Source: Anaerolineales bacterium
GTDB lineage: Bacteria; Chloroflexota; Anaerolineae; Anaerolineales; UBA11858
Assembly (NCBI GenBank): GCA_049644685.1
Contig: JBARSJ010000116.1
Span: 5,622 to 69,621, forward strand
DNA length: 64,000 nt
Direction of reading: 5' to 3'
The translations under genes were made by a program, and so were the position numbers. Shown here one piece after another: positions 1,940 through 15,572 of the stretch. Numbering within the stretch: position 1 is the stretch's first letter; every line of letters starts with the position of its first letter. The notes under the pieces are model-generated. The model was not told where the DNA came from, ran no database searches, and was given only the letters and a program-made list of their open reading frames with translations.

Positions 1940-3745
1940 ATGGGGATGTTAAACAAGTTTATTCGCTTGATATTAATAATGCTGATTGTGGGGGTTTTTT
2001 CAGCTTGCACTGGAAACGATGGCAATCAATCTGCTTATTACCTTGTAGATCCCCGCTTTAGTGAACTGTATGATCGACTCCAGGGTGATGAAATCCTTGG
2101 TCCCCCTATTTCCAATAAAAAATACGTTGCCGGTTCAAATCTGGAAAAACAATACTTCGAAGGGGCTGTACTGGTTTACGATCCGGATAATTCTCCCCGC
2201 TACTATCTGGATCCAGTAGGGATAGACGCAGGCTTCTCTGATTTGCCAAACAACGATCCCGAGAATCCTTCTGTGAGATACATCAATGGCTATATTATCC
2301 CGCCGGAATTTTCCAGGTTCTACGATGAAATGGGGGGTGAACGCTGGGTCGGGCTTCCACTTACACGAGCCAGATTAAATCCAGAAAAGAAGACCATTGA
2401 ACAGTATTTTGAAACCATGGGCTTCTTCCGGTTTGAGGATGATCCCCCGGGAACTGTGTATTTGATGCCTTATGGTCTTTGGAAATGCGCCGGAGAATGC
2501 GCAAAGTATCCGGGAGTGGAAAACGCAGGTATCAGCCGATCGGCTGGAGAGGAAATCCAGTCTCCTTTTGGTGAGGCAATATCCCGATTTGGGGTCCAAT
2601 TTACGGGGGATGCCCTATCCACAGCCTTCCGGGCAGGCGATGGCAATATCGAGCAGATCTTTCATAATGTTGTCCTCTATGAGGAATCAACCAATCCCCT
2701 TGGTGTATCCCTCCGCCCGGTTTCCGCACTGTTGGATCTGAACCGTGATCCATACCAGGTGCACCAGAAAGATTCAACGGAGTATTTTAGAGAGATAGAG
2801 CCAGGCAGCGGCTTTTATATCCCGGTTTACTTTATGGATTTCATCGATCGTTACTTTGGATTTGAAATCTCAGGTGAACCGGTCTCCCGTCATGAAGAAA
2901 TCCGAGAGGGAGTCAGGCAACAGTGTTTTGAAAATTATTGCCTGCTGCATGACGCACTGGCAGAACCTGGACAGCAGGTTCGGGTGAAACCATTGGGTCA
3001 GAAGTATAAAGATTCTTTTTATCAAACAACAAAAAAACCAGCAATAGAAACTCAAAGGCAGCGGGATATCCAGCTGGATATTTGGGAGCAATCACCCCAG
3101 ATATCTTCCCAGGAAAACCAGCAGATCGGAGCCTGCATTCATGAATCTGGTTCACCTCTGGAATATGCCCAGGCACTGTTAACGGTTACAACAGAGAATC
3201 AAGGGGTGATAACCTATCCATTTTCCCCAACAGATTCGGGAGGGTGTTCATTCCTGGAATTGGATCCAATTCAGGCCCAAAACGGCACAACGATTGATTA
3301 TCAGGTTTGTTTTCAGGGAATTGGCGGTCAGGAATACTGCAAAAAGGACAGCTACTTAATCTGGGGAAACACAGATAAGGCACTCACAGCTGTCCCAGCA
3401 GAGGAAGAGCCGGCCGCACCGACTGCAGTTGTTGAATTTGTTGTTGATACCTGGGAGCTGTTCCCCCAGATCTCATCCTCCGAGCACCAGGAAGTAGGCG
3501 CTTGTGTTCATAAAAACAATACCCCGCAGGAAAATATGGATTCTCAACTTATCCTGGAATCGCCTAAGGCGGGTGTGATCACTTATCAAAGCTCACCGAC
3601 AGACGGGGGAGGATGTTCCTTTTTCAAGTTGAATCCAGTGGATGCCAAGAATGGGGAGACTATTCCTTATCAGGTTTGTTTTATGAACAAGTATGGAGAG
3701 CAATATTGTAAAAGGGACAGTTTCCTTATTTGGGGCAATCCCTGA
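1940..3745 (+). CDS. secreted lipoprotein with LGFP-like repeats and two C-terminal 4-Cys repeat domains (hypothetical)
   Basis: 601-aa ORF with AAGGGAAGGA before the ATG. Lipoprotein-type signal LIVGVFSAC. Four degenerate LGFP-like units (e.g. ILGPPISNKKYVAGSNLEKQYFEGAVLVYDP, WVGLPLTRARLNPEKKTIEQYFETMGFFRFED). Two ~100-aa C-terminal repeats follow. Confidence 0.8.
   Translation: MGMLNKFIRLILIMLIVGVFSACTGNDGNQSAYYLVDPRFSELYDRLQGDEILGPPISNKKYVAGSNLEKQYFEGAVLVYDPDNSPRYYLDPVGIDAGFSDLPNNDPENPSVRYINGYIIPPEFSRFYDEMGGERWVGLPLTRARLNPEKKTIEQYFETMGFFRFEDDPPGTVYLMPYGLWKCAGECAKYPGVENAGISRSAGEEIQSPFGEAISRFGVQFTGDALSTAFRAGDGNIEQIFHNVVLYEESTNPLGVSLRPVSALLDLNRDPYQVHQKDSTEYFREIEPGSGFYIPVYFMDFIDRYFGFEISGEPVSRHEEIREGVRQQCFENYCLLHDALAEPGQQVRVKPLGQKYKDSFYQTTKKPAIETQRQRDIQLDIWEQSPQISSQENQQIGACIHESGSPLEYAQALLTVTTENQGVITYPFSPTDSGGCSFLELDPIQAQNGTTIDYQVCFQGIGGQEYCKKDSYLIWGNTDKALTAVPAEEEPAAPTAVVEFVVDTWELFPQISSSEHQEVGACVHKNNTPQENMDSQLILESPKAGVITYQSSPTDGGGCSFFKLNPVDAKNGETIPYQVCFMNKYGEQYCKRDSFLIWGNP
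3068..3370 (+). repeat. C-terminal domain repeat, copy 1 (aa 377-477 of the 601-aa protein)
   Basis: IQLDIWEQSPQISSQENQQIGACIHE...GVITYPFSPTDSGGCSFLELDP..YQVCF...EYCKKDSYLIWGN aligns without gaps over most of its length with copy 2. Four Cys are conserved in both copies. Confidence 0.75.
3434..3739 (+). repeat. C-terminal domain repeat, copy 2 (aa 499-600)
   Basis: EFVVDTWELFPQISSSEHQEVGACVHK...GVITYQSSPTDGGGCSFFKLNP..YQVCF...QYCKRDSFLIWGN. Same 4-Cys pattern as copy 1. Confidence 0.75.
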
Positions 3746-7238: not shown

Positions 7239-8453
7239 TCAGACAATGATTAATGGAACCGGTGAAAATACCAGGAAAAAGATAATCAATCCAATCCTGG
7301 CCAGGAGTTTTCTCCTCGGATCGAGTTCGGTAATCTCATCCAGCGGCTCAGCTCTAATCTGGCCCAGAAATAGAATTAAGAAAGCCCACAACCACCAACC
7401 TGACCACATAAACCCGAGGATTATCAAAGACCCCAGGATAACCGGTCGAACCCATTTTAACTTATCTCCAAATAGACTGTAAATCAGGTGGCCACCATCC
7501 AGCTGCCCGGCAGGAAGCAGGTTTAAGGATGTTATTAATAATCCAGCCCACCCTGCCCAAGCAACAGGGTGAATTGAGACATCTGTACCGCCATAGGGCA
7601 GAGGAAGACTGGTGAAGAAATAACGAATCCAGTAGATGACAGGATGGATTCCCTGGAAAGATAATGGCTCAGGAAGCAAAGATCCGTGTACCAAATACTT
7701 TAAAGAAAGGTAAAGAATGGAGTTTCCTTCAAACATGAAATCATCAGGGAAAACAGAGGGGAGATTAACAATTGTGGATAAGTTTAAACCATAGACCAGA
7801 ACTGGAATTGCGATAACCAGTCCACCAATGGGACCTGCCAAACCAATATCGAGCAGAACCCGCTTGTTTTTCGGAGGTTCGAGCAGCCGGATAAAAGCTC
7901 CCATAGTTCCAAAGGGACTGATTGGGAAGGGGATAAAAAATGGCAGAGTAACTTTTGTATTATGAATCCGGGCGGCAAAGTAATGACCAAATTCATGAGC
8001 TGTCAGGATGCTGAGCAAACTGACAGCAAAAGCAATGGACTGCCCCAGATTAACTTTAACATGAGCCCAAATGATGGAAAAATCGAGTGTTTTAGGTCCG
8101 GTGTAGGATGTAATGATACCGGAAAAGATAATGCTGGCAAATGTGATCAAAAACAGGATCAGGTTTACCCGATTCTTAGGGGTTTGGGGTTGGGATAAGC
8201 CTTTCTTAAGAATGACCTTATGTTTATTGCCGCTTATTCTGAAGTAGGGAGTAATCCCGTGAGGATGAAGAGCACCCGCTGCAAAATCATAAGCTTCCTG
8301 TGAAGGCTGATTTAATAAACCTTCAAATTCGATTATATGATCGTCCTGATTTTTTCCCAGAGTCATATGATCAATAGTAAAAAATTGTTTGACAACCATG
8401 ACAAGAATTTCTATCTGGGATTGGGTCTCTTCAGGGATTTCTGATAGGCTCAT
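7239..8453 (-). CDS. site-2 protease family (M50) membrane metalloprotease
   Basis: HEFGHYFAARIH (HExxH) in a TM segment. Polytopic. The 443-aa ORF in the track extends to 8570 but its first 39 codons overlap a tRNA-Sec gene. ATG at 8453 (MSLSEIPEE...) is taken as the start. Confidence 0.85.
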   Translation of the reverse strand: MSLSEIPEETQSQIEILVMVVKQFFTIDHMTLGKNQDDHIIEFEGLLNQPSQEAYDFAAGALHPHGITPYFRISGNKHKVILKKGLSQPQTPKNRVNLILFLITFASIIFSGIITSYTGPKTLDFSIIWAHVKVNLGQSIAFAVSLLSILTAHEFGHYFAARIHNTKVTLPFFIPFPISPFGTMGAFIRLLEPPKNKRVLLDIGLAGPIGGLVIAIPVLVYGLNLSTIVNLPSVFPDDFMFEGNSILYLSLKYLVHGSLLPEPLSFQGIHPVIYWIRYFFTSLPLPYGGTDVSIHPVAWAGWAGLLITSLNLLPAGQLDGGHLIYSLFGDKLKWVRPVILGSLIILGFMWSGWWLWAFLILFLGQIRAEPLDEITELDPRRKLLARIGLIIFFLVFSPVPLIIV

Positions 8454-8480
8454 AAGGGGAGGGAAAAAACGTGTAAAAGG

Positions 8481-8574
8481 CGGGAGTGAATGGGAGTCGA
8501 ACCCACCGCGGCTCGCATTACGACCCGCCACCGATTTTGAAGACCGGGGAGCCCACCGGGACTCAACCACCCCC
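8481..8574 (-). tRNA. selC: tRNA-Sec (anticodon UCA)
   Basis: Reverse complement: GGGGGTGG-TT-GAGTCC-CGGT-GGGCTC-C-CCGGT-CTTCAAA-ATCGG-(24-nt variable arm GGCGGGTCG TAATG CGAGCCGC)-GTGGG-TTCGACT-CCCAT-TCACTCCC-G. It has an 8-bp acceptor stem, a 6-bp D stem with a 4-nt loop, a 5-bp T stem, a long variable arm and anticodon TCA. This is the bacterial 8/5 tRNA-Sec architecture. CC is encoded after the discriminator but the terminal A is not. Confidence 0.85.
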
Positions 8575-8719: not shown

Positions 8720-9631
8720 ATGATTTCTAATAAGGATTATCTCTCAATAATCATTCCTGCTTATAATGAAGAGAAAGTTATTGGTCAGGTTGTTAACCAG
8801 ATCCAATCTGTGATTAATGAATTGGGTTTCAAATATGAGATCCTGGTTGTGGATGATGGATCAGGAGACGGGACAGCAAATTTAGCGCGAGAAGCAGGGG
8901 CACGTGTAATTCAACATCCGGAAAATATCGGAAATGGCGCTGCGATTAAAACAGGTATTCGCAAGGCAAAAGGGAATGTCATTGTCATGTTAGATTCGGA
9001 TGGGCAGCATCCCCCGGAAGATATCCCTCGCCTGCTGGAAAAGTTAGGACCCTATGATATGGTCGTTGGGGCAAGGACAAAGACGTCTGAAACTGATCTC
9101 CGCCGGGATTTCGGGAATAAAATATATAATGCTTTGGCGACTTATGTTTGCGGACGAAAAATTGAGGATTTGACTTCCGGGTTTCGGGCGATTAAAGCGG
9201 ATGTTGCCCAGAAATTTGTCTATTTACTGCCAAATAAATTTTCTTATCCTACCACTATAACTTTAGCGGTCCTGCGGTCTGGTTTGAGTCTGGCGTATGT
9301 CCCGATAGAGGGGAAAAGACGAATTGGAAAGAGCAAGATTAAACTTGTCCGCGACGGAATGAGGTTTTTAATGATTATTCTTCGCGTATCCACCTATTAT
9401 TCTCCGCTTAAGATTTTCATTCCGGTAAGCATATTAATGTTTTTAACCGGATTTGGTTATGGATTATACAAGGTGATATTCCTGAATACTCGCTACGGGC
9501 CTACTTCTGCGATGTTGATGACTATTTCTGTGGTGATATTTATGGTTGGCCTCGTCTCAGAGCAAGTAGCTCATTTGCGGTACCTATGGAGCGAAAAATC
9601 CACCGAAAGTGATGAATTCAAAGAATCGTAG
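8720..9631 (+). CDS. family 2 glycosyltransferase, polyprenyl-phosphate sugar synthase type (GtrB/DPM1/ArnC-like)
   Basis: IIIPAYNEE...VVDDGSGDGT...MLDSDGQHPPEDI motifs plus two C-terminal TM helices. Confidence 0.88.
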   Translation: MISNKDYLSIIIPAYNEEKVIGQVVNQIQSVINELGFKYEILVVDDGSGDGTANLAREAGARVIQHPENIGNGAAIKTGIRKAKGNVIVMLDSDGQHPPEDIPRLLEKLGPYDMVVGARTKTSETDLRRDFGNKIYNALATYVCGRKIEDLTSGFRAIKADVAQKFVYLLPNKFSYPTTITLAVLRSGLSLAYVPIEGKRRIGKSKIKLVRDGMRFLMIILRVSTYYSPLKIFIPVSILMFLTGFGYGLYKVIFLNTRYGPTSAMLMTISVVIFMVGLVSEQVAHLRYLWSEKSTESDEFKES

Positions 9632-9753
9632 ATCTCAGATTGTCCCCATTTTCAAACGTGGAGAATTATGGAGCTATGGGCATCTAGTTGTTCCAGATCC
9701 TCACAATACAGATTTAAGAAAAAAAGCAGGATATTAGCTGTTGGAGCAGACCA

Positions 9754-10728
9754 TTGAAAAGAGGTAGGATTTATCTTGGCATCGTAGTATCACTGATAGT
9801 GATTGGTTATGTGCTTCTAAAGCTAGATTGGCAGCAAGTCTGGATTACAATTAATAGTCTGAATTGGGATTGGTTAATTGTTGCTTTATTATTCCAGATC
9901 GCGAATTATTATTTTCGATCCATGCGTTTTATTTCAATCTTAGATCTTGCAGATTTTCCTTTCCTTAAGATATTAGGAATTACAAATCTTTATGGAATGT
10001 ATCTATATTTGATGCCATTTAAAGTTGGTGAGGCATCATTTCCATTATTGATTAAAGAACATTTAGATGTACCCCTTGTAAAAAGCACAGCAGCTTTGCT
10101 TGTTGTCAGATTTACGGATTTTATGGTTATCGCGCTCCTTATACCCGCAATGTTAATCTTTCAATGGACGAACCTTTCCGGTTGGCTGCGTTATGGAGCA
10201 GGATTACTAAGCATGGTGATTTTTAGTTTATGGCTTTTTTTTATCTGGCTTGTACGGAATCCAGACAAAATACTAAATTCTCAGGTAATGAATATCAACT
10301 TGAGGAAAGCTGTTATGAAAAGAATTCGTCAGATAATTCTAAGAATTTTTGAAGAAATTCTTAGAATTGACCGGCAGAAAAAATATTGGCGTACTCTGAT
10401 TTTTACTTCTTTGATATGGATATGTATTCAAGCGACCCTTTTTTTTATCATTAAAAGTTTGGGATTCTCAATTGTTATTACTCAAGTATTCATGATTACT
10501 ATCATTACACTGCTGTTGAGTTTATCGCCTATTCAAGGAATAGCCAATCTTGGATCCCATGAAATAAGTTGGGTTACTGCATTTGCTCTGTTTGGATTTA
10601 CTTACAATGACTCCTTGAATATCGCTGTTAACTCACATCTGATATATATAGCTCTTAGTATTTTATTAGGCTTATCTGGAAATGTTTTGATAACTTTTTG
10701 GAAGCCTAAAGATAGACCTTTACAATGA
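9754..10728 (+). CDS. flippase-like / lysyl-PG-synthase-TM-region family membrane protein
   Basis: 324-aa polytopic ORF with a TTG start. The N-terminus KRGRIYLGIVVSLIVIGYVLLKLDWQQVW...LLFQIANYYFRSMRF resembles the UPF0104 flippase-like family often found beside GT2 genes. AT-rich coding sequence. Confidence 0.65.
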   Translation: MKRGRIYLGIVVSLIVIGYVLLKLDWQQVWITINSLNWDWLIVALLFQIANYYFRSMRFISILDLADFPFLKILGITNLYGMYLYLMPFKVGEASFPLLIKEHLDVPLVKSTAALLVVRFTDFMVIALLIPAMLIFQWTNLSGWLRYGAGLLSMVIFSLWLFFIWLVRNPDKILNSQVMNINLRKAVMKRIRQIILRIFEEILRIDRQKKYWRTLIFTSLIWICIQATLFFIIKSLGFSIVITQVFMITIITLLLSLSPIQGIANLGSHEISWVTAFALFGFTYNDSLNIAVNSHLIYIALSILLGLSGNVLITFWKPKDRPLQ

Positions 10729-10755
10729 CCGGAAATAAAAACCCAGGACTCAATT

Positions 10756-11280
10756 ATGAAAGATAAATTAGGCAAATTTCTTATGGAGTGGCGCATCCGC
10801 ACTGTAATTCCACACATAAAAGGGCGCCTGCTAGATATTGGATGTGGCACTAATCAGTTAGTCAAAACCTATAAGGGAGAAGGCGTTGGCGTAGATGTTT
10901 ATCAGTGGGGGTATGTTGATTTAATTGTTGAAGATTCAGCTGATTTGCCGGTAAATGATAAAGAATTCGATACAGTTTCAATTATTGCATCATTAAATCA
11001 TATCCCAAATAGACAGGAAGTCCTTCAAGAAGCAAACAGAATACTCAAAGATGAGGGAATCATAGTTATTACAATGATCACCCCGCTAATTTCGGAAATT
11101 TGGCATCGTTTACGTGAGCCCTGGGATGTTGATCAGAGGGAACGAGGCATGAAAGAAGGAGAGGTATTTGGTCTGCAGGTGAAAGAGGTTGCAACTCTTC
11201 TTGAGGAAGCTGGTTTTAAAATCATCTACAGAGAACGATTTATGTTTTCTATCAACATGATAACGGTTGCAAGAAAATAA
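10756..11280 (+). CDS. class I SAM-dependent methyltransferase
   Basis: LLDIGCGTNQL (motif I) and acidic motif II/III spacing. 174 aa. Confidence 0.8.
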   Translation: MKDKLGKFLMEWRIRTVIPHIKGRLLDIGCGTNQLVKTYKGEGVGVDVYQWGYVDLIVEDSADLPVNDKEFDTVSIIASLNHIPNRQEVLQEANRILKDEGIIVITMITPLISEIWHRLREPWDVDQRERGMKEGEVFGLQVKEVATLLEEAGFKIIYRERFMFSINMITVARK

Positions 11281-11390
11281 TACCTCAGGACCTTATTGAT
11301 TAAGAGATCGATATATTGACCCTGAGTAATCCTCTGGCTCTCAGTAATTCCGCTCAAGTATATTATGGTTTCAATAGGCGAAATTAACAA

Positions 11391-11419
11391 TTGACTGGAT
11401 AAATTAAGTCAAGAATAAT
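11391..11419 (+). promoter_or_regulatory. candidate internal promoter (TTGACT-N17-AATAAT)
   Basis: TTGACT at 11391-11396, 17-nt spacer, AATAAT at 11414-11419, then AGGAG at 11421-11425 and the ATG at 11432. Confidence 0.35.
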
Positions 11420-11431
11420 CAGGAGATTAAG

Positions 11432-13261
11432 ATGTTTTTATTGGGATTAGTGTCAATTATTCAAATAACTCTCTTGCCCGGGTTGCTAATTCTGAAGATA
11501 TATAAAGTCAATAAAGGTTTTATTCAAAACCTGGTTTTATCTTTTGCATTAAGTTTGATATTTAACCATATATTTGTTGTTCTCCTGACTCATTTAGGCA
11601 TTAATTTCCCTGTTTTACATTACTTATTATTTATCTGTGAAGTAGTGGTTTTTGGATATCTTTTTGCAGCTGACTTAAAAGAACCGATCGGAGAAATTCT
11701 GGGGCGATATTATCAGAAAATTATTTCAGAACTGCAATCCCTGATCGGGAGAGAAGATACCGAAACCAAACCAGTCTTTGGAAAGGTGATTTATAGGATT
11801 ATCGCTAGTGTATTTGTTGTTTGGGCAATAATCTGCTTGATTTGGGCATTAAATATTCTTGTTTCCAGTTTTGGTTCTGTTTTCACAATCTGGGATTCGG
11901 TAGTCTCCTGGAATCAGTGGGCTGTCGAGTGGTTTTCAAATACCCAACCCTTAGATACCAAACGATATGCCCAATTAATTCCTACGAATTTCTCGATTAC
12001 TTATTCATTTATGCAGAGCGAAATAATCCAATTCTTTGCAATTGGATTCATGCCGCTATTTCCGTTATTCATTCTTTTGTTAATGTTGGATTTGGGTTTA
12101 GAACATAAGAATCTAGGATATATTATTGGATTGGTTGCAACGAGATATATTCTCAATCGTTTCTATTCACATTTTTTTAGTTCTGGTTATGTCGATGTTC
12201 CCCTGGTTTTTTTCACATGTTTAACTGTTTACCTTCTTTTAAAGTCCTTAAATATGAGTGATGAAGAAAAGAAAATCAAATATGTGTTCTTGGGATTTAT
12301 TATGGCTGCTGGAGCGGCTCTTACAAAACAAAATGGTTTATTTGTGTTTTCCGTATACCCGTTATTAGCCTACCTGATCGTTTTACGAAAAATCGATTCT
12401 CTTACCCAAAAAGAAAAAATTGGAAAATTAGTTATCTTCTTTTTAATCTCATTATCTCTGCTCATTCCCTGGTATATATTTAACGAAATCCGAATTCTGG
12501 AGGGTGCAAAAACCAATATTCTGATGTTGATTAGCCAAGATCATCATCGTGGTCTAACAAGAATTCAGCGTCTGGTAAAAGCTTATAAAGATCTTAGTGT
12601 TTACTTCTATCTTTATCCTTTTGTTATCATTACACTTCCGCTAATTGAAAAAGATTATAGAAAGATTGTCTTGTTAATTATGTTTCCCTATACGTTAATT
12701 TGGGCCTTTTTCTTTAGTAAATACACGAGAAATCTATCGATAGCCTTACCATTGCTGGGGATGGCAACCGGTTTGGGGGCGGATGGTTTGATTAGAGTTT
12801 TCACTGGTTTGGTTTCGAAATGGAAAATTGAGAAGGTGAAAGCTCAAATAATACTGGGGTCAATAGTTATCCTTATTATTGGTGCTGCACTGCTTGTTCC
12901 CAGCAGTATGTTAATTGATCTCCAGACTAACAACCAAAAACTTATTTTGGAGTCTGAAGTTAATCAGTTGATTTATCATCATTTCGATGAAAAAGGAAAA
13001 TTGGCACCAATTTTTACAAATTATCCTCTCAGGTATTTACCTGGTTTCGAACAATTACAAGTAAAAATTGGGGGGTTTGAAGATTACAATTTTTACCAAC
13101 AAAAACGGGCTGATTATCCTGATGTAAAGTATATGTTGATTTCATTGTATAAAGATAATGATGAAGTCGTAGCGGAAATTCAACAAAATATTAAACAAGG
13201 AAATTACGAATTAATTTTTTCTAAGAATCGATATATGTTTGTTCATATATTGAGTGATTGA
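11432..13261 (+). CDS. large polytopic membrane protein, possible GT-C-fold glycosyltransferase (ArnT/PMT-like)
   Basis: 609-aa ORF with a good SD (AGGAG). More than 10 predicted TM helices plus a C-terminal soluble domain. Context is beside a polyprenyl-P-sugar synthase. The family assignment is an inference, not a motif match. Very AT-rich. Confidence 0.55.
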   Translation: MFLLGLVSIIQITLLPGLLILKIYKVNKGFIQNLVLSFALSLIFNHIFVVLLTHLGINFPVLHYLLFICEVVVFGYLFAADLKEPIGEILGRYYQKIISELQSLIGREDTETKPVFGKVIYRIIASVFVVWAIICLIWALNILVSSFGSVFTIWDSVVSWNQWAVEWFSNTQPLDTKRYAQLIPTNFSITYSFMQSEIIQFFAIGFMPLFPLFILLLMLDLGLEHKNLGYIIGLVATRYILNRFYSHFFSSGYVDVPLVFFTCLTVYLLLKSLNMSDEEKKIKYVFLGFIMAAGAALTKQNGLFVFSVYPLLAYLIVLRKIDSLTQKEKIGKLVIFFLISLSLLIPWYIFNEIRILEGAKTNILMLISQDHHRGLTRIQRLVKAYKDLSVYFYLYPFVIITLPLIEKDYRKIVLLIMFPYTLIWAFFFSKYTRNLSIALPLLGMATGLGADGLIRVFTGLVSKWKIEKVKAQIILGSIVILIIGAALLVPSSMLIDLQTNNQKLILESEVNQLIYHHFDEKGKLAPIFTNYPLRYLPGFEQLQVKIGGFEDYNFYQQKRADYPDVKYMLISLYKDNDEVVAEIQQNIKQGNYELIFSKNRYMFVHILSD

Positions 13262-13317
13262 TTGGAGCAAATTTCTCTTCCCGCAATGGTTTGGTATCAC
13301 TGAATACTAAATTTTGC

Positions 13318-13346
13318 TTGACAGGGGAGAGGACACTTGCTAAAAT
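13318..13346 (+). promoter_or_regulatory. near-consensus sigma70-type promoter (TTGACA-N17-TAAAAT)
   Basis: TTGACA at 13318-13323, exact 17-nt spacer, TAAAAT at 13341-13346. Confidence 0.7.
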
Positions 13347-13353
13347 CACCCTC

Positions 13354-13682
13354 AGTAACTTAACAAATAAATAACGAAGGATTAACAGCGGCTGAGCCTC
13401 AGTTTTCTGAGGTGACGAGGTGGAGGTTCTTCCCCGCGAGGGGAATGCTAAACTGCAGTAACTTGCAGTGAAGATCGAAGGATCAGCGGATGCCTCTGAA
13501 GCCCGGCCATGGGCTTCTTTATCCTTCCCGAAAAAAAGCGGCTCAAAACCATCTGGTGACGGATGAGACAAATGCCCTTTAATGGCTCAGAGAATGAATT
13601 CCCATTTTTCTGGATTAAAAAGGGAAGGGCTGCCGTTAGACCTGATCAAGAATTAAAGGCACGCCCAAGCGTGCTTTTTTTT
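13354..13682 (+). promoter_or_regulatory. unclassified structured 5' leader RNA / candidate riboswitch-attenuator upstream of glnA
   Basis: About 330 nt between the promoter and an intrinsic terminator. Hairpins: 13397-13412; 13430-13445 (GCGA tetraloop); 13452-13469; nested 13477-13527; long bipartite 13558-13637. Direct repeat CGAAGGAT..CAGCGG.TG..CCTC at 13375-13400 and 13476-13496. No SD-preceded ORF. Confidence 0.55.
13659..13682 (+). terminator. intrinsic terminator 75 nt upstream of the glnA start
   Basis: GCACGC-CCAA-GCGTGC hairpin (13659-13674) followed by T8 (13675-13682). Confidence 0.8.
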
Positions 13683-13756
13683 GTTAAATTGTTTTAGCTA
13701 GCCACCGCATTGATTTATTCATGACAGGTGCTATTGTCCTTACTACTGGAGGAAAT

Positions 13757-15094
13757 ATGGATAACAAGGAATTATTATCACGAGTCAAAGAAGATGATGT
13801 TAAATTTATATCACTGCAGTTTACTGATGTCACTGGATCAGTAAAAAGTGTGGATATCACCCCTCAAAGACTGCCGGGAGCCCTGGAGGATGGGGTTTGG
13901 TTTGATGGATCATCTGTAGAAGGGTTTGCCAGAGTTCAGGAAAGTGATATGCGATTAGTACTGGATCCAGCTACATATGCAGTATTACAATGGAATCCAA
14001 AGGATTTGCAGAGAGCCAGAGTGTTTTGTGATATTTACAAGCCGGACGGAAAACCTTTTGAAGGAGATCCCCGGGGAGCCCTGAAACGAATGCTGTCTAC
14101 ACTGGAAGAAAAGGGATGGGTGTTTAATATTGGCGCGGAACCCGAATTCTTTTTATTCAAAAGGAACGGAGAAGAAGGTATGCATCCGGTCCCTTATGAT
14201 GTGGGTGGGTATTTTGATTTTTCCGCTCGCGATCAGGCAACGCTGGTCCGGACCGAGTTGATGTACGCGCTTGATGAGATGGGATTGGATGTTGAAATGG
14301 GCCATCATGAGGTTGCCCGAGGACAGCATGAGATTGATTTCCGATACGGGGAAGCACTAAAAGCTGCGGACAATGTGATCACCATGAAGTATACGGTAAA
14401 AGCGATTGCTGCTAAATATGATTTGATTGCTTCATTTATGCCAAAACCGATATTCGGTGTTAATGGATCAGGAATGCATACACATCAATCAATTTTTACC
14501 AAGAATGGGGAGAACTTGTTCCATGACCCTGAGGATGAAAACCATCTCTCCAAACTGGCTTATCATTTCCTCGCCGGGCAGCTTAATCATGCCCGGGGCA
14601 TGTCCGCAATTCTTGCGCCAACTGCCAATTCATATAAACGTTTGGTCCCGGGGTATGAAGCTCCGGTGTACATAGGATGGGCTCAGATAAACCGCTCCGC
14701 TTTAATCCGGCTTCCGCGCCATACTACCGGTCGGAATAAATCAATCCGTCTGGAATTAAGATGTCCGGATCCATCCGCAAACCCGTATCTGGCTTTTGCA
14801 GCTATGTTGGCAGCTGGATTAGATGGAATAAACCAGGAATTACCCTGTCCTGCTCCATTAAACAACCTGAATATCTGGAATCTGAGTGAGGATGAACGGA
14901 AAGAAAAAGGCATTGCCTCCTTGCCGGGATCATTGGCTGAAGCCATGCATGAATTTGAAAGTAATCAGGTGATAAAAGATGCCCTGGGTTCAACGATATG
15001 CGGTGTTTTCAGCCGGGCAAAATGGGCAGAAGTGGATGAATACCGGACCAGAGTGACAGATTGGGAAATCAGCCGTTATCTGGAATTAGCTTGA
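13757..15094 (+). CDS. glnA: glutamine synthetase, type I (GSI-alpha-like)
   Basis: ATG at 13757 preceded by GGAGG. MDNKELLSRVKEDDVKFISLQFTDVTGSVKSVDI..., GAEPEFFLF, GHHEVARGQHEIDF, NGSGMHTHQS, RLVPGYEAPVY. The region equivalent to the adenylylation loop reads NLNIWNLSEDE, with no NLYDLP Tyr motif. Confidence 0.95.
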   Translation: MDNKELLSRVKEDDVKFISLQFTDVTGSVKSVDITPQRLPGALEDGVWFDGSSVEGFARVQESDMRLVLDPATYAVLQWNPKDLQRARVFCDIYKPDGKPFEGDPRGALKRMLSTLEEKGWVFNIGAEPEFFLFKRNGEEGMHPVPYDVGGYFDFSARDQATLVRTELMYALDEMGLDVEMGHHEVARGQHEIDFRYGEALKAADNVITMKYTVKAIAAKYDLIASFMPKPIFGVNGSGMHTHQSIFTKNGENLFHDPEDENHLSKLAYHFLAGQLNHARGMSAILAPTANSYKRLVPGYEAPVYIGWAQINRSALIRLPRHTTGRNKSIRLELRCPDPSANPYLAFAAMLAAGLDGINQELPCPAPLNNLNIWNLSEDERKEKGIASLPGSLAEAMHEFESNQVIKDALGSTICGVFSRAKWAEVDEYRTRVTDWEISRYLELA

Positions 15095-15152
15095 ACAAAT
15101 AACCCCTTGTTTTGAATTAAGGGGAGCCTAGAAAAGTTGGCAAAGGGTGAAT

Positions 15153-15572
15153 ATGACTGTAGAGACAATGTACATTCAGATACAAACCAGCGGGAACGGG
15201 GATATTCTGGATATCACCTCCGAGATACAGTCCAAAATCTCGGATTGCAGCCTGGAAAATGGAATCGTCACAATCTTCACACCTTCAGCTACCAGCGGAT
15301 TATCAACACTGGAGTTTGAGTCTGGTTGTGTAGAGGATCTACAGAGATTGTTTAATGACATTCTTCCCCCAAACCGGGATTATGCCCATAATCAGCGCTG
15401 GGGAGACGGGAATGGACACAGCCATGCCAGGGCAGCGCTCCTGAAACCTTCGCTCACTGTCCCCTTTGTTGAAAAGAAATTGACTTTGGGGACTTGGCAG
15501 CAAATTGTCCTGGTTGATTTTGATACCAGGCATCGTCAACGAAAGTTGGTCGTTCAAATCCTGGGGGAATAA
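15153..15572 (+). CDS. YjbQ/UPF0047 family protein (secondary thiamine-phosphate synthase-like)
   Basis: ITSEIQ...GIVTIFTPSATSGLSTLEFESG...DGNGHSHARAALLKPSLTVPF..GKLTLGTWQQIVLVDFDTR is characteristic of UPF0047. The start is either GTG at 15147 or ATG at 15153. Confidence 0.85.
   Translation: MTVETMYIQIQTSGNGDILDITSEIQSKISDCSLENGIVTIFTPSATSGLSTLEFESGCVEDLQRLFNDILPPNRDYAHNQRWGDGNGHSHARAALLKPSLTVPFVEKKLTLGTWQQIVLVDFDTRHRQRKLVVQILGE

Follow-up and report, generated by a model that had tools for sequence, protein, structure and literature searches.

To our knowledge, the glmS ribozymes are the sole natural ribozymes with a metabolite as cofactor. The reviews that we consulted describe this class (Rfam family RF00234, with members in Bacillus subtilis, Thermoanaerobacter tengcongensis and Bacillus anthracis) solely as a regulator of glmS. 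In the full-text literature we found no link between a glmS ribozyme and glnA, glutamine synthetase (GS), glutamate synthase (GOGAT) or Chloroflexi; a mention in an earlier survey is possible. Here we describe an RNA at positions 13353-13682 of a 64,000-nucleotide stretch of DNA from an Anaerolineales bacterium (“the window”; all coordinates are window positions on the + strand unless stated otherwise). The RNA lies in front not of glmS but of the glutamine synthetase gene glnA, and in metagenomes also of glutamate-synthase genes, which we believe is a new context for this family. Our reading, to which we give a probability of roughly 0.6, is that a homologue of the glmS ribozyme has been recruited to the glnA leader as an OFF switch for GS and GOGAT that responds to glucosamine-6-phosphate (GlcN6P) and is possibly gated by cleavage.

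Two other kinds of RNA regulator invite comparison. The cyanobacterial glutamine riboswitch (RF01739) is likewise an RNA-level sensor over glutamine-synthetase activity or nitrogen assimilation, but its fold is small and unrelated and it binds glutamine; no match to it was found at E <= 10 in positions 12500-14500. Terminating riboswitches such as the SAM-I and purine classes resemble the window RNA in their expression platform, where the 3' strand of the helix that closes the aptamer also belongs to an antiterminator competing with a terminator. In the window, on the other hand, the sensor is a ribozyme fold, and this helix (P3.1) has a competitor in a leader segment that lies 5' of the scissile bond. 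Because of this competition, the trigger may be the cutting of the strand and not folding induced by a ligand.

Assignment to the glmS ribozyme family

A preliminary description of this region had presented the RNA as unclassified and possibly a new RNA class, with no match to known families. That view does not survive a covariance scan. When positions 12500-14500 were compared with Rfam in E-value mode, RF00234 (the glmS GlcN6P-activated ribozyme) matched 13376-13590 over the full model (positions 1-167) with 36.6 bits and E = 1.8e-6. Orthologues reached 37.4-46.2 bits, and the gathering score was passed in 9 of 20 such glnA-linked loci. Since 36.6 bits is below the gathering score of 37, RF00234 is not listed in a separate gathering-threshold scan of the whole window, which is probably why the RNA looked unclassified. 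The window score is depressed by two big insertions, one of 54 nt into the P2 loop and one of 33 nt around P3.

The strings of glmS ribozymes were all found: A↓GCG (the arrow marks the cleavage site), GACGAGG, AUCG, GCGGAUGCCUC, a GUGA tetraloop and the internal loop CAAAAC / GACAAA. Like canonical members, the RNA occupies a 5' leader. As in them, P2, P2.1 and P2.2 make up a double pseudoknot, P3 and P3.1 a further pseudoknot, and the P4/P4.1 domain contains an A-rich internal loop and ends in a GNRA loop. The residues that have been assigned to the active site and cofactor pocket (PMC7125110), namely C2, C28, U43-G45 and G56, correspond to 13389, 13416, 13475-77 and 13488 and are all invariant. 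We conclude that the RNA almost certainly belongs to the glmS family. It probably self-cleaves at the predicted site. The unchanged pocket residues make GlcN6P the most likely ligand, an assignment that we put at somewhat better than even odds.

Conservation of the fold

We imposed the glmS fold on an alignment of 36 sequences, using the pseudoknot pairing of the T. tengcongensis core (PMC7125110). In this alignment 91.3% of cells were paired, compared with 82.3% in shuffles and 35-48% in slid controls. Compensatory changes were present in 36 pairs, and the observed values were reached in 0 of 500 shuffles. All core strands and the helices P1, P2, P2.1, P2.2, P3, P3.1, P4 and P4.1 are present. 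Covariation is strong in P1, in P3 and in both hairpins of the P2 loop. Hardly any change is seen in P2, P2.1 and P2.2, as would be expected of a catalytic core.

The predicted self-cleavage site, A-1↓G1 at 13387-13388, aligns with the RF00234 consensus A↓GCG, and A13387, G13388 and the C and G that follow are invariant in all 36 sequences. In the P2.2 5' strand CGGCUG (13389-13394, 99.4% paired), C2 and G3 pair with 13488 and 13487 and, beyond a bulged purine R4 (13391), 13392-94 with 13486-84. The P1 hairpin (13396-13413) is 99% paired, with compensatory changes in 4 of 6 pairs. It is followed at 13414-13426 by the core strand GACGAGG, which includes the P2.1 5' strand (13416-18), and by the P2 5' strand GGAGG (13422-26); these strands are invariant save for G26, and P2.1 and P2 are 100% paired. 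Two hairpins are inserted in the P2 loop (13430-13469), one at 13430-45 with a GCGA loop and one at 13452-69. All 12 of their pairs show compensatory changes. The glmS-linked copies described below have them too, and the pair is typical of Anaerolineae glmS-family RNAs.

The core 3' strands (13475-13497) comprise P2.1 UCG (13475-77), P2.2 CAGCG (13484-88), GAUG and P2 CCUCU (13493-97); the string GATCAGCGGATGCCT in these strands is invariant and agrees with the RF00234 consensus GCGGAUGCCUC. P3 (13498-13517) is 98% paired, with 6 of 7 pairs compensatory, and leads into the joining segment J3/4 (13518-13534). There AUCCUUC (13521-27) pairs with the leader, forming a helix we call P0, and CCUUCCC (13523-29) pairs with 13622-28, forming P3.1 (94% paired). 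The next domain (13535-13580) contains P4 (13535-38 with 13577-80, plus 13540-13575), the A-rich internal loop IL4, placed by the Rfam alignment, and P4.1 (13550-55 with 13560-65; 95.8% paired, 6 of 6 pairs compensatory), which carries the GUGA loop. P4 covaries in the Rfam register when read directly from the sequences. A hairpin at 13588-13612, present in the minimum free energy (MFE) fold, differs in sequence and length across loci. Beyond it, at 13622-13634, lie the P3.1 3' strand GGGAAGG (13622-28) and, overlapping it, the 5' strand of a candidate antiterminator, GGGCUGCC (13627-34).

The preliminary description had called the RNA densely structured and non-coding, and in both respects it holds: the predicted 338-nt transcript has an MFE of -119 kcal/mol as compared to -92.9 +/- 5.8 kcal/mol in dinucleotide shuffles (z = -4.5), and the region shows compensatory base changes together with indels that are not multiples of three. 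Four of the hairpins it proposed covary, namely CCTCAG/CTGAGG (P1), TTCCCC-GCGA-GGGGAA and ACTGCA/TGCAGT (the P2-loop pair) and GAAGCCC/GGGCTTC (P3). Other elements were misread. The outer helix between GAAGGAT (13477-83) and ATCCTTC is unconserved, as position 13480 varies freely, and the partners of ATCCTTC are instead GGGAAGG at 13622-28 and a copy in the leader at 13377-83. The supposed long bipartite hairpin at 13558-13637 is a mixture of P4.1, P4, variable-hairpin and P3.1 strands, and the complementarity of CTGAGCC to GGCTCAG, put forward as an alternative pairing, is not conserved. A direct repeat is indeed present, but it falls on different parts of one ribozyme and does not mark tandem sensing modules. 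Like the other misread elements, the repeat and the bipartite hairpin lack conservation.

Compared to canonical RF00234 members, then, the window type differs in the gene that it precedes, in P2.2 (a bulge at position 4 instead of 6, no C4-G54 pair and a variable G26), in the 45-nt two-hairpin insert of the P2 loop and the hairpin between P4 and the P3.1 3' strand, and in the pairing of the leader with J3/4. A coupling of P3.1 to an antiterminator and terminator is not described for canonical members.

Association with glnA, gltB and glmS

A GlnA protein search yielded 80 loci from metagenome-assembled genomes (MAGs) of Anaerolineales/Chloroflexota, with GlnA 69-93% identical, and the regions upstream of these glnA genes were searched with nhmmer, using the window leader and then a profile. 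The whole element, from -10 box to terminator, precedes glnA in 45 of the loci. It was found in 27 of 27 loci in which GlnA is at least 78% identical and enough upstream sequence is available, and in 17 of 47 more distant ones. On the other hand, 30 of 74 Anaerolineales glnA loci (GlnA 69-73% identical; L031, L033, L036-L049 and others) have no such RNA within 3 kb upstream.

The RNA is always co-oriented with the downstream gene or operon, which in glnA-linked loci always includes glnA. The upstream neighbor differs from locus to locus: tRNA-Sec, 6S RNA, a tRNA or, in the window, a glycosyltransferase cluster. A 6S RNA lies directly upstream and co-oriented in L061 (2098-2274), L071 (1569-1745), L075 (732-910), L077 (1351-1527) and L084 (323-498). 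No sigma-70 promoter was found between the 6S RNA and the ribozyme in the group L050/L058/L061/L068, so the two may be co-transcribed there.

When metagenome contigs were scanned for exact matches to the invariant 15-mer GATCAGCGGATGCCT and the matches filtered with the profile, 28 further copies emerged. Most precede glnA, and three (L136, L138, L139) precede a pair of genes with glutamate-synthase domains (PF01645). These data show a conserved link of the predicted RNA to glnA and gltB. The preliminary description had suggested a role in nitrogen assimilation in Chloroflexota, which agrees with glnA in 45 loci and glutamate-synthase genes on three metagenome contigs; conservation upstream of glnA in relatives, which it had proposed as a check, is likewise borne out by the 45 loci and the covariation in 36 sequences.

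Six metagenome copies precede GlmS (L087, L102, L130, L142, L145 and L147). The closest named relatives of one of these GlmS proteins come from MAGs labeled ‘Anaerolineae bacterium’ and ‘Chloroflexi bacterium’, and two more Anaerolineae-type glmS loci, L203 (GCA_964478075.1) and L204, carry the RNA as well. The glmS-linked copies score 53-75 bits against RF00234 and the glnA/gltB-linked ones 36-46 bits. As compared in L102, L130, L147, L203 and L204, the glmS-linked ribozymes share a set of lineage-specific features with the window type: two hairpins in the P2 loop, a CAGCGGAUGCC strand, AACAAnUGAAUA as leader motif, pairing of the leader with J3/4 and a distant P3.1 3' strand. Unlike the window type they have A↓GCGCAUG at the cleavage site, three cleavage-proximal P2.2 pairs and no terminator.

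One copy, L149 (12388-12606), scores 43.6 bits and has a glmS-type signature (GCGCACG); the first open reading frame (ORF) 3' of it is not GlmS but small GTPase-like (NKxD motif), and the locus ends before the next gene. In the Chloroflexota MAG locus L201 (JBFOMW010000057.1), glmS has a mere 29-nt upstream spacer and no ribozyme, so not every glmS gene of this group carries one. Among the GlmS-homologue loci L201, L203 and L204, none comes from a MAG of the glnA set, and no genome with both a GS-type and a glmS-type ribozyme was found among them.

A P2.2 signature that follows the regulated gene

The core strands of the two groups are identical save for G26 and the heptamer after the cleavage site. 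This heptamer is GCGCAUG (also GCGCAAG or GCGCACG) in glmS-linked copies, and GCGRCUG, with R being G or A (once U, and once GCGGAUG), in glnA/gltB-linked copies. Both types pair with the same 3' strand, CAGCG. The glmS-linked form retains the cleavage-proximal pairs C2-G56, G3-C55 and C4-G54. In the GS/GOGAT form position 4 is a bulged purine, which is followed by C5-G54, U6-A53 and G7-C52. The window type thus does not form the canonical P2.2 (C2-G56, G3-C55, C4-G54 and a bulge at 6); the register of the helix is altered and the fold is kept. Residue 26 is G in every glmS-linked copy and G, A, U or C in the GS/GOGAT type. In the canonical core G26 takes part in a 26*7-52 triple, and the three cleavage-proximal pairs are the most sensitive in P2.2 (PMC7125110).

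By this signature, some 60 glnA/gltB copies can be told apart from some 8 glmS copies of the same class. The GS signature is found also in two glnA copies, L084 and L148, that have a different expression platform, and it therefore tracks the regulated gene and not the platform.

One possibility raised by these observations is that fold and platform are the same but the sensor has been re-tuned through the remodelled P2.2, either to another amine-bearing nitrogen metabolite or to a very different GlcN6P set-point. The match between heptamer and regulated gene, the freedom of residue 26 in the GS/GOGAT type only and the mostly higher RF00234 scores of glmS-linked copies speak for this possibility. 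However, C2, C28, U43-G45, G56, G1 and A-1 are invariant and identical to those of the glmS-linked copies, and control of glutamine supply by GlcN6P makes physiological sense with an unchanged ligand. We therefore consider re-tuning unlikely and prefer a GlcN6P-responsive ribozyme.

Promoter, terminator and read-through into glnA

The RNA has its own sigma-70-type promoter at 13318-13346, as the preliminary description had claimed. A promoter scan gave TTGACA (-35, 13318-23) and TAAAAT (-10, 13341-46) with a 17-nt spacer, which agrees with the consensus at 11 of 12 positions and is extended by a TG at 13338-39. About 35 related loci keep the promoter in the form TTGAC(A/G)-17-TAnAAT, placed 36-52 nt before the cleavage site, and we infer a transcription start site (TSS) near 13353.

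The intrinsic terminator that had been noticed 5' of glnA also stands. It occupies 13655-13682, with a 10-bp stem (13655-64/13669-78), a CCAA loop and a U-tract (T8) to 13682. In an alignment of 38 sequences the stem is 92.7% paired, with compensatory changes in 7 of 9 pairs, and the top of the stem (RYGCCC) and the C-rich loop are conserved in sequence. The regulated gene, glnA (13757-15094; Shine-Dalgarno (SD) sequence GGAGG at 13748-52), encodes a type I glutamine synthetase (Pfam Gln-synt_C, 1.2e-127; Gln-synt_N, 2.3e-26).

The terminator ends 75 nt before the glnA ATG in the window. The distance from terminator stem to ATG is 35 nt in L030, L032 and L035, and the spacer is unconserved elsewhere. 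Because 35 nt leaves no room for a separate promoter, glnA transcription evidently has to read through the predicted terminator, and the earlier view, in which a structured leader acts in cis, has a promoter of its own and is read through into glnA, is upheld. A second promoter candidate, TTGATT-16-TGcTATTGT (about 13710-13737), was rejected; it is weak, unconserved and impossible in the loci with 35-nt spacers. Taken as a whole, the RNA is very probably a cis-regulatory element that needs terminator read-through.

A strong promoter and an efficient-looking terminator could also frame a stand-alone small RNA (sRNA) gene whose product works in trans or has no relation to glnA, the two being neighbors by synteny only, and in some lineages one or two other genes do intervene before glnA. 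Such a gene would hardly remain co-oriented and upstream of glnA or gltB in every case while its upstream neighbors vary, nor would it account for the lack of space for a glnA promoter in L030, L032 and L035. A covarying antiterminator and terminator-less versions that pair directly with the glnA SD, both described below, likewise point to regulated read-through or translation of the adjacent gene. We regard an independent sRNA as highly improbable and retain a cis-acting leader.

An antiterminator coupled to P3.1

To represent the RNA before the 3' half of the terminator is made, we computed folds for the stretch that starts at the invariant GGAAGGG and stops at the terminator loop. The same long-range helix appeared in all of about 40 such truncated folds, at -10 to -20 kcal/mol. 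In the window it joins 13627-34 (GGGCUGCC) with 13658-66 (GGCACGCCC, which is also in the terminator), and its general form is GGGC-n-UGCY with RGCA-n-GCCC. This antiterminator is 89.1% paired in the 38-sequence alignment as compared to 41-50% in slid controls. The column pair 15/44 reads CG in 14 sequences, UA in 14 and UG in 7, and column 44 also covaries with terminator column 61. Cognate strands of the antiterminator form duplexes of greater stability than non-cognate strands do (permutation p < 0.0005).

The helix has 13658-64 in common with the terminator, and G13627-28 (and 13629) in common with P3.1, since the two or three G's that end the P3.1 3' strand also begin the antiterminator 5' strand. 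The sequences thus show the overlap of the predicted P3.1, antiterminator and terminator. When sequestering of the P3.1 3' strand was modelled with nine constrained nucleotides, (A)GGGAAGGG, the mean terminator probability rose from 0.78 to 0.97, and in seven loci from about 0 to 0.6-1. An antiterminator coupled to P3.1 is, on this evidence, quite probable.

Three other pairings were examined and set aside. Pairing of the terminator 5' half with the core strand GCGGAUGCCU occurs in 15 of 36 sequences and is explained by the near-palindromic GGCAUGCC stem. Pairing of the purine-rich P3.1 3' strand and its extension with the terminator 3' half and U-tract is strong in a subset only and kinetically implausible in general; we retain it as a secondary equilibrium effect. 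The pairing of leader UUAACAA with UUGUUAA after the U-tract, which is in the MFE fold, shows no covariation.

Not all copies have a terminator. In the terminator-less glnA copies L084 and L148, the strand that pairs with J3/4 (P3.1) is the glnA SD sequence itself, which makes this a second kind of expression platform. Similarly, in the glmS-linked copies L102, L145, L203 and L204, the P3.1 3' strand is the glmS SD sequence, far 3' of P4; in L147 and L087 it is not the SD but lies about 100-200 nt 5' of the start codon. Formation of P3.1 would accordingly mean gene OFF in three different wirings.

It could also be speculated that the ribozyme fold serves constitutively in processing or stability and that a protein factor at the terminator region sets read-through by nitrogen status. 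GSI-alpha enzymes of other phyla are under protein-factor regulation, no ligand-induced refolding is known for glmS ribozymes, and the terminator top (RYGCCC and the C-rich loop) is unusually conserved in sequence. This conservation has another explanation, however: the terminator top is the antiterminator partner of the invariant GGGC, both covary, and RNA-RNA pairing suffices. In the terminator-less copies, moreover, the P3.1 pairing sequesters the SD, as an RNA-autonomous switch would. We consider control by a protein factor very improbable.

Pairing of the leader with J3/4

The leader 5' of the cleavage site (13353-13387) contains the conserved motif CUUAACAA (13359-66) and the P0 strand GAAGGAU (13377-83), which is complementary to AUCCUUC (13521-27) in J3/4. 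Across the loci, the 5' part of J3/4 is matched by a complementary run of 6-9 nt in the leader, at -12 to -5 relative to the cleavage site, and the leader:J3/4 duplex has a mean of -9.4 kcal/mol as compared to -4.7 kcal/mol for shuffled leaders. The partners change together: GAAGGAU/AUCCUUC, AAGGAUA/UAUCCUU, GGAGAAA/UUUCUCC and AAGGUUGA/UCCAACCUU, with GGGGAAGA/UCUUCUCCCC in glmS-linked copies. In the window P0 overlaps the P3.1 5' strand by 5 nt.

In two glmS-linked copies, L203 (2163-2503) and L204 (2140-2503), the leader GGGAGGG closely mimics the SD region CAGGAGGG. This suggests that, in glmS-linked copies with the SD as P3.1 strand, translational control may be coupled to cleavage.

A longer leader motif, UUAACAAnUGAAUA (13359-13372), lies 10-25 nt after the predicted TSS and is nearly invariant in glnA- and glmS-linked copies. 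Neither a function nor a pairing partner was found for it, and in L087 it overlaps a possible promoter.

A proposed mechanism

The overlaps of these helices suggest a relay in which P0 would block P3.1, P3.1 would block the antiterminator and the antiterminator would block the terminator. While the leader is tethered, it would hold J3/4 and leave the G-rich strand free; the antiterminator would then form first and polymerase would enter glnA. At high GlcN6P, the presumed input, the core would cleave during transcription at 13387/88 and the 35-nt leader would become untethered. Once it is released, P3.1 (13523-29/13622-28) and then the terminator would form, and transcription would stop 75 nt before glnA. 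Any read-through mRNA would carry a 5'-OH and would be exposed to 5'-3' decay, like in the RNase J1 pathway of Bacillus. Low GlcN6P would raise GS/GOGAT output because GlmS makes GlcN6P from glutamine.

There are about 185 nt between the end of the core (13497) and the end of the U-tract (13682). The B. subtilis core alone can cleave co-transcriptionally, before the peripheral domain is made (PMC10810187), and a kobs of about 0.36 per second has been reported (PMC11602151).

Several points weigh against a GlcN6P-responsive, possibly cleavage-gated OFF switch. Cleavage, ligand and termination control are predictions from sequence. The window copy falls 0.4 bit under the RF00234 gathering score, and some lineages have EamA-glnA or Ada-like-EamA-glnA, on the same strand, 3' of the RNA. 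With the antiterminator strand free, the terminator is still favored at equilibrium in most sequences, so the switch would have to be kinetic. Mutual exclusion of P0 and P3.1 is not guaranteed, because the two overlap by just 2 nt in GGAGAAA-type relatives. Canonical glmS ribozymes are reportedly pre-folded regardless of ligand, and a purely ligand-induced P3.1 switch would therefore be without precedent. Finally, a bulged purine replaces C4-G54, and activity or set-point may differ, since the equivalent change in the T. tengcongensis core, C4A+A6C, only partially rescues a very deleterious mutation (PMC7125110).

We therefore propose the relay by a cleavage-released leader tentatively, at somewhat less than even odds. 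A broader statement, that self-cleavage sets the termination decision, as the first natural case, and/or that the remodelled P2.2 re-tunes the ribozyme to another nitrogen signal, is possible but doubtful.

Gene neighborhood in the window

The gene 5' of the RNA (11432-13261, same strand) encodes a PMT-like membrane glycosyltransferase. A tRNA-Sec gene lies at 8482-8574 on the - strand, 4.7 kb upstream of the ribozyme, and in L005, L007, L009, L011 and L017 tRNA-Sec is just about 100-300 nt upstream of it. Judged by these relatives, the four window genes in between (8720-13261; GT2, LPG-synthase TM, methyltransferase and PMT-like GT) look like an insertion. A 443-amino-acid (aa) ORF at 7239-8570 on the - strand overlaps the tRNA-Sec gene at the ORF start and may be mis-called, and a 601-aa ORF at 1940-3745 has no Pfam match. 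On the 3' side, a UPF0047 (YjbQ-like) gene (15147-15572) begins 52 nt after glnA on the same strand; it may be co-transcribed with glnA and hence under the same leader. A Pfam scan of ten window ORFs revealed no GlmS domain; this search for glmS did not extend to the remainder of the window.

Significance

A conserved sister subclass in Anaerolineae would extend the glmS ribozymes to central nitrogen assimilation. It would precede the genes for glutamine synthetase and glutamate synthase, carry a diagnostic change by the active site and use riboswitch-style platforms, with either a terminator and antiterminator or SD pairing. The natural variants, with the bulge at position 4 and a free G26, have their counterparts in compensatory mutants that were engineered in the T. 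tengcongensis core. Such a subclass would point to GlcN6P, or to a related amine, as a signal of nitrogen status, and it would give a natural system for converting strand scission into a transcriptional or translational decision.

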